DNA of 64,000 bases from Nitrospirota bacterium (GTDB lineage Bacteria > Nitrospirota > Thermodesulfovibrionia > SZUA-242): NCBI GenBank assembly GCA_016212095.1, contig JACRHH010000018.1, positions 3,126-67,125 of the forward strand, written 5' to 3'. Every line of letters begins with the position of its first letter. Position 1 is the first letter of the stretch. The notes under the pieces were generated by a model. That model saw only the letters and a program-made list of their open reading frames with translations. It ran no database searches and had not been told where the DNA came from. Both the position numbers and the translations under genes were made by a program. Shown piece after piece: positions 59,490-60,886 of this stretch.

Positions 59490-60599
59490 ATGCAAGAACT
59501 CAACATCCGGCGCTATCAGCAGCCCGAAGCAGCTCAAAGCTGCGCGGCTAAAGTAAAGCCGGAATATGTGACCGGAACCATACCCACGCAGGCTGGAGAG
59601 ATTCCGCGAGTTTCATCAAGCTGGAGCCGCGCCGACAGGCTCGGAGAGATCAAAAGCCGCGTCGGCGCGTTCCGTATGCGCTACACGGTTGAGCCGGGCC
59701 TCTACGCGGTCGGCGAGCCGGGCCGCGACTCCGACGTGTTTGCAAGCGCCAACTACAAGCTCAGCTTCGACATTCTTCGGCGCGCGCTTTCTGGCATGAA
59801 CGCATGGATTCTGGTTCTGGACACAAACGGCATAAACGTCTGGTGCGCCGCCGGAAAGGGAACCTTCTCCACCGCCGAGATGGTCAAGCGCATCGCCTCG
59901 TCAAAACTTGGAGAGGTCGTGGATCACCGCGTGATAATCGCCCCGCAGCTTGGCGCGGTTGGCGTGCGCGCGCGGCAGGTGGAAAAACTGAGCGGTTTCA
60001 AAGTCCGTTTCGGCCCGGTTGACGCCGCCGACATCCCCGGATATGTTCGCGCCGGTCACAGAAAAACCGACGCGATGCGGCGCGTGAAGTTCACGCTGAA
60101 AGACCGCCTGGTGCTTACGCCCATGGAGATAAATCCGGCGATGAAGCAGTATCCGTGGTTCGCCGCCGCCATCTTGCTTGTTGCCGGATTGCAGCCGACG
60201 GGAATAATATTCGCCGACGCGCTGAAAGGCCTGCCGCTTCTTCTGCTTGGGCTGCTCGCAGTATTCACCGGAGCGTTCGTAACGCCGGCACTGCTTCCGT
60301 TTGTTCCGTTTCGTTCGTTCGCGCTGAAAGGCTGGCTCATGGGCATGATCGCGCTGATTCCTGCCGCCAACATGCTTGATCTGGCCGGAAAAAGCCTGCC
60401 GTACCAGGCCGCGTCATATATCTTTTTCCCGATGGCAAGCTCATACATCGCGCTTCAGTTCACCGGCTCGACAACTTTCACCGGCATGTCGGGCGTGAAA
60501 AAAGAGTTAAAAATCGGCATTCCTGTCTATCTGGCGTCAACCGCCATCGCAACGCTTCTGCTTGTGGCATCGAAGCTTATCGACTGGAGGATTTTATGA
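59490..60599 (+). CDS. hgcA: Mercury-methylation corrinoid protein HgcA
   Basis: Cap-helix motif GINVWCAAGKGTF; C-terminal multi-pass transmembrane domain; AGGAGG ribosome-binding site. Confidence 0.75.
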   Translation: MQELNIRRYQQPEAAQSCAAKVKPEYVTGTIPTQAGEIPRVSSSWSRADRLGEIKSRVGAFRMRYTVEPGLYAVGEPGRDSDVFASANYKLSFDILRRALSGMNAWILVLDTNGINVWCAAGKGTFSTAEMVKRIASSKLGEVVDHRVIIAPQLGAVGVRARQVEKLSGFKVRFGPVDAADIPGYVRAGHRKTDAMRRVKFTLKDRLVLTPMEINPAMKQYPWFAAAILLVAGLQPTGIIFADALKGLPLLLLGLLAVFTGAFVTPALLPFVPFRSFALKGWLMGMIALIPAANMLDLAGKSLPYQAASYIFFPMASSYIALQFTGSTTFTGMSGVKKELKIGIPVYLASTAIATLLLVASKLIDWRIL

Positions 60600-60886
60600 A
60601 GTACCTCGCCAACGTGACAACAATCAGGCTTATAACCGATAAATGCGTCGGATGCGGGAAATGCGCCGATGTCTGCCCTCACGGGGTTTTCGTTGTCGAA
60701 GGCGGAAAGGCAGCGATCACAGACCGCGACAAGTGCATGGAATGCGGCGCGTGCGCCACCAATTGCGAGTTCGGGGCGATTGAGGTTGAAAGCGGCGTGG
60801 GCTGCGCGGCGGCGATAATCAACAGCATAATCTACGGCGGCGAGCCGTCGTGCGACTGCACGGGTTCTTCGGGGTGCTGCGGGTAA
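60596..60886 (+). CDS. hgcB: Mercury-methylation ferredoxin HgcB
   Basis: Two CxxCxxCxxxC(P) clusters plus C-terminal vicinal Cys (..SSGCCG); ATGA overlap with hgcA. Confidence 0.75.
   Translation: MKYLANVTTIRLITDKCVGCGKCADVCPHGVFVVEGGKAAITDRDKCMECGACATNCEFGAIEVESGVGCAAAIINSIIYGGEPSCDCTGSSGCCG

Follow-up and report, generated by a model that had tools for sequence, protein, structure and literature searches.

Sequence analysis predicts a two-gene HgcAB mercury methyltransferase in a divergent uncultured Nitrospirota bacterium

Our results suggest that the window (the whole 64,000-nucleotide stretch of a Nitrospirota contig analysed here) carries, at positions 59490-60886, a canonical and intact two-gene HgcAB mercury methyltransferase. 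We have high confidence in this identification, from which mercury methylation is predicted and which, on the basis of genotype, makes the host a predicted methylmercury producer. The pair consists of hgcA, encoding a mercury-methylation corrinoid protein of 369 amino acids (59490-60599, + strand), and hgcB, encoding its partner, a 96-amino-acid ferredoxin with two [4Fe-4S] clusters (60596-60886, +). With this known gene pair, anaerobic microbes convert inorganic mercury to methylmercury, which is toxic. Every sequence feature required by the known mechanism is present and conserved in these two genes. The hgcAB identity that the initial annotation had given to the pair is thus upheld: both proteins score above the cutoffs of their equivalog profiles, and both carry the motifs used for high-stringency identification.

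In the NCBIfam profile search, HgcA matched the HgcA_corrinoid equivalog NF040863 with 398.7 bits (cutoff 275, E 1.8e-119), the alignment running from residue 38 to residue 363 and over profile positions 1-324 of 325. HgcB matched the HgcB_ferredoxin equivalog NF040864 with 121.5 bits (cutoff 99, E 9.7e-36), from residue 2 to residue 95 and over all 93 profile positions. With such E-values for the two proteins, chance is excluded. Moreover, a database search returned 7858 homologues of HgcA, the closest named ones bearing the name HgcA.

The hgcA open reading frame extends from the ATG at 59490 to the TGA at 60597-60599 on the + strand. Its 370 codons include the stop, and the product therefore has 369 residues; the gene first described as encoding a 370-residue protein was borne out, its length being off by one. 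A start at TTG 59448, which would give a protein of 383 amino acids, was considered and dropped in favour of the ATG, because the Shine-Dalgarno sequence AGGAGG (59477-59482, +), which is kept in the 89 %-identical relative L002, lies 7 nt before this ATG. In addition, the relative whose HgcA is 91 % identical begins with the same MQELNI, and the 383-residue form is absent from the databases. Note that hgcA is a separate, unfused gene with hgcB directly downstream: the ATG of hgcB overlaps the TGA of hgcA by 4 nt (ATGA), a classic arrangement which indicates that the two genes are translationally coupled.

The first half of the HgcA architecture is a CFeSP-like (corrinoid iron-sulfur protein-like) corrinoid-binding domain of the Rossmann type, at residues ~65-189 (59682-60056, +). 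Pfam PF03599 (CdhD) covers residues 66-185, the CFeSP large subunits 2h9a, 4c1n and 4djd align to residues 65-187/189 in a PDB sequence search (E 3e-12), and the AlphaFold2 model shows an alternating strand/helix (alpha/beta) pattern in this region. That PDB sequence search returned CFeSP chains only, with no HgcA entry. The domain contains the cap-helix motif NVWCAAGK, at residues 116-123 (59835-59858, +), which figures in the published motif list (PMC10087281). Its cysteine, Cys119 (codon 59844-59846), is the counterpart of Cys93 in HgcA of Pseudodesulfovibrio mercurii (Desulfovibrio desulfuricans) ND132, whose role has been described (PMC7305189, PMC11588087), and is predicted to bind the cobalt as its axial thiolate ligand. 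The segment INVWCAAGK (I115-K123) is invariant in alignments of 15 and of 40 HgcA homologues, confirming the cap-helix signature and its cysteine as initially read.

The second half is a C-terminal membrane domain at residues 216-365 (60135-60584, +), as had also been claimed, and the NF040863 match extends through it to residue 363. AlphaFold2 predicts five helices here (216-232, 244-267, 277-295, 303-329 and 334-365), with block means of the per-residue confidence score (pLDDT) between 54 and 90 across the region, and a simple hydropathy scan (windows of 19 residues, threshold 1.5) peaks in three regions and so flags only three of the five. Long blocks of this domain, such as SSYIALQFTGSTTFTGMSGV, are invariant in the 15- and 40-homologue alignments. 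The AlphaFold2 model was built on the 40-sequence alignment and has a mean pLDDT of 76 and a predicted TM score (pTM) of 0.66. When compared with the PDB using Foldseek, its best match was 9a0b_A, an integrative ND132 HgcAB model (E 7e-21, 330 columns, 41 % identity, TM 0.64-0.70), on whose HgcA it superposes over the whole length. The next matches were CFeSP large subunits (2ycl/2h9a, probability 1.00), which align over 124-147 columns with E ~1e-7 and cover the corrinoid domain only.

The small protein has the features of HgcB. As initially described, it is an overlapping 96-residue ferredoxin with two CxxCxxCxxxC motifs: the first, CVGCGKCADVCP, contributes Cys17/20/23/27 (60644-60679, +) and falls in a Pfam Fer4 match, and the second, CMECGACATNCE, contributes Cys47/50/53/57 (60734-60769, +) and holds the C(M/I)ECGA signature, here as CMECGA. 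Thirteen positions past Cys57 lies Cys70 (60803-60805, +), which corresponds to Cys73, essential in ND132. The flexible C-terminal tail carries Cys86 and Cys88 (in PSCDC) and then the vicinal pair Cys94-Cys95 (60875-60880, +), the proposed site of Hg(II) acquisition and delivery (PMC7305189). The protein had been said to end in vicinal cysteines; the pair is indeed there, but it is penultimate, one glycine following it in the terminal ...SSGCCG. In ND132 HgcB, the clusters are held by Cys20/23/26/30 and Cys50/53/56/60, Cys73 is indispensable, and one or the other of Cys94 and Cys95 must be present (PMC7305189). The cluster cysteines and Cys70 of the window protein reproduce this pattern shifted by three residues. 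Published high-stringency criteria for hgc genes ask for one of six HgcA cap-helix motifs, the first being NVWCAAGK, together with an HgcB that bears C(M/I)ECGA and is encoded on the contig of hgcA (PMC10087281), and the window has both NVWCAAGK and, on the same contig, CMECGA.

These features are shared by the relatives. The locus comparison comprised 80 genomic loci of relatives from the genome collection and two contigs from Logan run assemblies (82 in total), and 76 of the 82 have the order hgcA then hgcB. Among the 75 loci with a complete hgcB reading frame, the same 4-nt overlap of the two genes is found in 51, C(M/I)ECGA in 72, a cysteine at the Cys73 spacing in 72 and a vicinal cysteine pair in the tail in 71. 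In addition, the ratio of non-synonymous to synonymous substitution rates (dN/dS) of hgcA against L002, the 91 % relative, is 0.13, with 0.10 for the corrinoid domain, 0.08 for the membrane domain and 0.49 for the first 37 residues. Thus, the gene is maintained by purifying selection, with only the N-terminal leader free to vary.

The mechanism of this family was established in ND132 and is carried over here by orthology. In ND132, HgcB reduces the cobalt to Co(I), and the methyl group passes to Hg(II) held on the tail cysteines of HgcB (PMC7305189). Purified HgcAB uses S-adenosylmethionine as the donor, with a methylcob(III)alamin intermediate and cobalt-thiolate ligation (PMC11588087). In the window pair, HgcA would be anchored in the membrane through its five C-terminal helices, and its CFeSP-like domain would bind the corrinoid, with the cap-helix Cys119 as the axial thiolate ligand ('Cys-on'). 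HgcB, the dicluster ferredoxin, would supply low-potential electrons that bring the cobalt to Co(I). The cofactor would then be methylated to CH3-Co(III), the donor being S-adenosylmethionine according to the recent biochemistry (methyl-tetrahydrofolate was formerly assumed), and the methyl group would be transferred to Hg(II) presented by Cys94/95 of the HgcB tail, with Cys70 as a relay, releasing CH3Hg+. For this host, we infer from the characterised orthologues that the cofactor is bound, that electrons are transferred, that the methyl donor is the same and that methylmercury is produced. The window also encodes an adenosylcobalamin-dependent ribonucleotide reductase, NrdJ (22604-24883, +; 1213.7 bits), next to a tRNA-Leu gene (22284-22368, -), and therefore the organism uses corrinoids for more than HgcA.

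Since HgcA contains a CFeSP-like domain, another possibility could be that the large protein is the CFeSP subunit (AcsC/CdhE) of CO dehydrogenase/acetyl-CoA synthase and the small one a generic ferredoxin. Pfam recognises only PF03599 (CdhD) in HgcA and only Fer4 families in HgcB, and the only PDB sequence matches of HgcA are CFeSP large subunits. Because Pfam sees nothing more than these generic families, many homologues bear uninformative or misleading names: several are called, in the JGI nomenclature, for example 'acetyl-CoA decarbonylase/synthase complex subunit gamma', the NCBI name of the window HgcB is just '4Fe-4S binding protein', and older automatic annotations label such proteins likewise. 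However, against NF003195 (acetyl-CoA decarbonylase/synthase gamma, AcsC/CdhE) HgcA reaches just 70.3 bits, with a cutoff of 306, and the alignment is limited to the last ~125 positions of the profile (322-446 of 450), its C-terminal domain. In place of the N-terminal [4Fe-4S] and TIM-barrel parts of CFeSP, HgcA has a five-helix membrane domain, the cap-helix cysteine, which CFeSP lacks (PMC7305189), is present, and no other acs or cdh genes adjoin hgcA. The profile check proposed with the initial annotation therefore places the protein with HgcA (398.7 bits for a cutoff of 275) and not with the corrinoid subunit, and the profile scores and the domain plan together refute the CFeSP identity, to which we leave practically no probability. 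The same applies to membership in the HgcAB-like group of fused or paralogous proteins, whose tested members do not methylate mercury. The HgcAB_like profile NF043039 does match significantly (E 2.1e-57 for HgcA and 1.3e-14 for HgcB), but the scores, 195.3 and 54.5 bits, stay far below its cutoff of 285, whereas those for the true HgcA and HgcB equivalogs are much higher and above their own cutoffs. Moreover, the window has two separate genes rather than a single fused polypeptide. Gene structure and scores thus rule out the fused non-methylating group, and we consider this alternative extremely improbable.

It could also be that the genes are true hgcAB orthologues and that the host makes no appreciable methylmercury, either because they are silent or because their native activity is an S-adenosylmethionine- and corrinoid-dependent methyl transfer of another kind, for instance to another metalloid or to a metabolite, mercury methylation being a side reaction. 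The evolutionary function of HgcAB has been questioned, with a link to arsenic and S-adenosylhomocysteine signalling reported in ND132 (bioRxiv 10.1101/2022.10.17.512643), and HgcAB expression is very low even in model strains (PMC11588087). In the window, no dedicated regulator adjoins hgcAB, and the toxin-antitoxin genes vapBC converge on it across a 4-nt gap lacking a terminator-like site, making antisense interference possible. Against this, both domains of HgcA are under strong purifying selection, all residues known to be required for mercury methylation are retained, and all tested organisms with unfused hgcAB methylate mercury (PMC10087281). We therefore regard a host without appreciable methylmercury as very unlikely.

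Several further points weigh against the window pair being a working mercury methyltransferase. The field has not agreed on a native physiological role for HgcAB (bioRxiv 10.1101/2022.10.17.512643), and the host lineage has no cultured member. The cap-helix segment (residues 114-124) of the AlphaFold2 model has a pLDDT below 50, and the Cys-on geometry therefore rests on the sequence rather than on the model. In HgcB, the second cluster motif ends in CE, not CP, an ending common to the Nitrospirota relatives. Finally, no ArsR-type regulator was found next to hgcAB, unlike in ND132, where arsR2 is co-transcribed with hgcAB (bioRxiv 10.1101/2022.10.17.512643). With these points taken into account, a canonical HgcAB methyltransferase remains by far the best-supported identity of the pair.

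In the 198-nt intergenic region 5' of hgcA, the window and L002 are almost identical over two blocks. The one closer to hgcA holds both the Shine-Dalgarno sequence and TGaTACAAT (59449-59457, +), a candidate extended -10 element, and this conserved block, ~35-40 nt upstream of the gene, is probably the hgcAB promoter. The consensus promoter scan found no sigma-70 site upstream of hgcA; it missed TGaTACAAT because there is no good -35. A riboswitch or other known RNA leader of hgcA was considered and rejected, since the Rfam search upstream of the gene (59250-59560) gave no match even at E up to 1, and none at the gathering score near the genes.

Directly downstream, as the initial annotation had stated, lies a vapBC pair. 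It is encoded on the - strand, and both of its proteins score above curated cutoffs. VapC, a PIN-domain toxin of the tRNA-fMet endonuclease type (60891-61292), matches NF047863 with 174.5 bits (cutoff 140) and Pfam PIN. The antitoxin VapB (61292-61519) matches NF047862 with 110.1 bits (cutoff 100) and Pfam MazE_antitoxin. The vapB stop overlaps the vapC start by 1 nt, and a promoter-like site is present at 61578-61550 (-). Note that vapC is convergent with hgcB and is a neighbour, not part of the hgc system: vapBC was found beside hgcAB in none of the 80 other genomes examined. Only 4 nt separate the hgcB stop (TAA, 60884-60886) from the vapC stop (TGA, 60891-60893, -). The terminator scan found nothing between the two genes; its terminator-like hits (3, for 3.6 expected from shuffled sequence) were given no weight. 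Since the stops are 4 nt apart and no terminator-like hairpin lies between them, the hgcB and vapC transcripts would have to overlap.

Upstream of hgcA and divergent from it is a series of core genes, pheA, hisC, tyrA, aroA, cmk, ispH, rpsA and sppA; past vapBC come motB and motA. This neighbourhood of pheA, vapBC and motAB is absent from all 80 other hgcA loci. The Logan contig SRR12113407_560496 (L001), which carries an identical hgcAB, is 100 % identical to the window from 58055 to the window end and shows, beyond motA, terC, pseudopilin genes and a multihaem cytochrome. Leftward of 58055, a position within hisC, this contig (positions 1-584) diverges completely, and its HisC is 56 % identical; the break reflects either a chimeric assembly in one of the two or a recombination breakpoint between two strains. 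A horizontally acquired island was also considered and rejected. The GC fraction at hgcAB is 0.57, which is also that of the flanks, the neighbouring genes are core ones, and neither a tRNA nor an integrase was found adjacent to hgcAB; thus, nothing marks a recent island. The pair occupies ordinary chromosome beside the aromatic amino-acid operon.

What is the host? Ribosomal protein S1 as encoded in the window shares 100 % identity with MBI5142075.1, which comes from a metagenome-assembled genome (on a contig of 123 kb) labelled "Nitrospirae bacterium" by NCBI. The next best match is 60 % identical, and the S1 proteins of named Nitrospirota are ~50 % identical. These results indicate that the host is a divergent uncultured bacterium deposited as a Nitrospirae/Nitrospirota metagenome-assembled genome. 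In line with this, the window HgcA has one relative of 91 % identity (run SRR22388218) and otherwise none above 68 %, and nearly all of the closest named genomes with HgcA relatives belong to Nitrospirota or Thermodesulfovibrionales. In a neighbour-joining tree, built without bootstrap, HgcA of the window and its 91 % relative form a long branch that is sister to the main Nitrospirota HgcA clade. This tree agrees with the NCBI phylum label, and the position of HgcA in it is compatible with vertical descent.

The window HgcB corresponds to MBI5142083.1, deposited only as "4Fe-4S binding protein". The hgcA gene was probably deposited too, under the accession ending in 082 and probably with a different start, because rpsA to hgcA is a stretch of eight genes, in keeping with the eight accessions ending in 75 to 82. 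In the literature, we found no mention of the accession numbers or of the run identifier. The presence of hgcAB in Nitrospirae has been repeatedly reported, the HgcAB of this phylum forming a coherent clade (PMC7438021), and dozens of Nitrospirota metagenome-assembled genomes with the pair were among the relatives retrieved here. The window hgcAB is therefore a fairly divergent further case of a pair already known from such genomes. A more ambitious proposal would join two claims: that the host represents a deep, undescribed lineage in which hgcAB is an old, vertically inherited chromosomal fixture of an aromatic amino-acid operon region and a new basal branch of the Nitrospirota-type clade, and that the convergent vapBC modulates hgcAB by read-through antisense transcription. 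Taken jointly, we think it unlikely that these claims hold.

The remainder of the window contains several other features. Two adjacent glycosyltransferase-like genes of the 'arsenosugar biosynthesis' type lie at 20562-21915 (-), matching TIGR04282 (172.7 bits, cutoff 134) and TIGR04283 (230.7 bits, cutoff 182). Although published work discusses a connection of hgcAB with arsenic metabolism, these two genes are 38 kb away from hgcAB and nothing links them to it here. Near the left end, the open reading frame 657-1907 matches a UvrD/PcrA-like helicase only partially. A type I-C Cas1 gene (3064-4200, +; 516.6 bits) is followed by a very short CRISPR array (4596-4794) with three repeats of 37-40 nt (Rfam CRISPR-DR9) and two spacers that differ in length, the repeats being spaced by 88 and 71 nt. 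At 6042-6131, three head-to-tail copies of the 30-nt unit AGACGCATTGCGATGCGTCTCTGCTGATCA, which contains the internal palindrome AGACGCAT..ATGCGTCT, lie a short distance 5' of two paired M16-type peptidase genes (6202-8957), with a weaker fourth copy at 4802-4831. They could be an operator or another kind of repeat array.

A defence-type cluster occupies 13271-20433 (-) and encodes a restriction endonuclease of the BPTD_3080 family (1060 aa, 1367 bits), a 928-residue protein with a DNA methyltransferase segment and a protein resembling Fic-family protein adenylyltransferases (below the equivalog cutoff). Three genes with a lower GC (0.48-0.52) adjoin it at 10862-13163, including a member of the sporadic TIGR04255 family, and the cluster with these adjoining genes is probably a mobile defence island. 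Finally, three consecutive open reading frames at 34367-37982 (+), of 320, 557 and 321 residues, had no Pfam match at E up to 1e-8. They lie inside a polysaccharide/cell-envelope cluster with glycosyltransferases, an epimerase, a DegT aminotransferase and a sulfatase-like protein.

The hgcAB pair of the window leaves the known mechanism of mercury methylation unchanged. Its interest is that the public annotation conceals a likely methylmercury producer, HgcB being deposited under a generic name and many homologues being annotated as subunits of acetyl-CoA synthase. For metagenome surveys of mercury-methylation potential, correct labels are important. Moreover, a divergent branch beside the Nitrospirota HgcAB clade could help reference databases and primer design.

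Compared with the experimentally characterised methyltransferase of ND132, the window has the same two-gene architecture and domain plan: HgcA combines a corrinoid domain, whose cap helix is of the NVWCAAGK type, with five membrane helices, and HgcB is a ferredoxin with two [4Fe-4S] clusters and a cysteine tail. Cys93 of ND132 HgcA corresponds to Cys119 here, and Cys73, Cys94 and Cys95 of its HgcB to Cys70, Cys94 and Cys95. However, the two HgcA proteins are only 41 % identical, and the N-terminus of the window HgcA, judged by the position of the cap-helix cysteine, is 26 residues longer; it is also poorly conserved (dN/dS 0.49). In HgcB, the window protein differs by the additional tail cysteines Cys86 and Cys88 and by the CE ending of its second cluster motif. 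The locus differs too, with no arsR-like regulator upstream and with the divergent pheA and the convergent vapBC as neighbours.

The CFeSP large subunit (AcsC/CdhE; 2h9a, 2ycl, 4djd) has a homologous Rossmann-type corrinoid domain with a cap helix over the cofactor. Unlike it, HgcA has a membrane domain and a cap-helix cysteine ligand, lacks the N-terminal [4Fe-4S] and TIM-barrel parts, and is partnered by a small ferredoxin instead of AcsD. The closest relatives are the HgcAB proteins of Nitrospirota/Thermodesulfovibrionales metagenome-assembled genomes (the Nitrospirae clade of McDaniel et al. 2020), HgcA being 54-66 % and HgcB 51-72 % identical to the window proteins. The window HgcA differs from the 395-residue forms in having no cysteine-rich N-terminal extension, and it sits on a long branch of its own, shared with the single 91 % relative from another sequencing run. 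The window and the Nitrospirota pairs are alike in the HgcB tail, GGxPSCDC...CCG, and in the 4-nt overlap between hgcA and hgcB.

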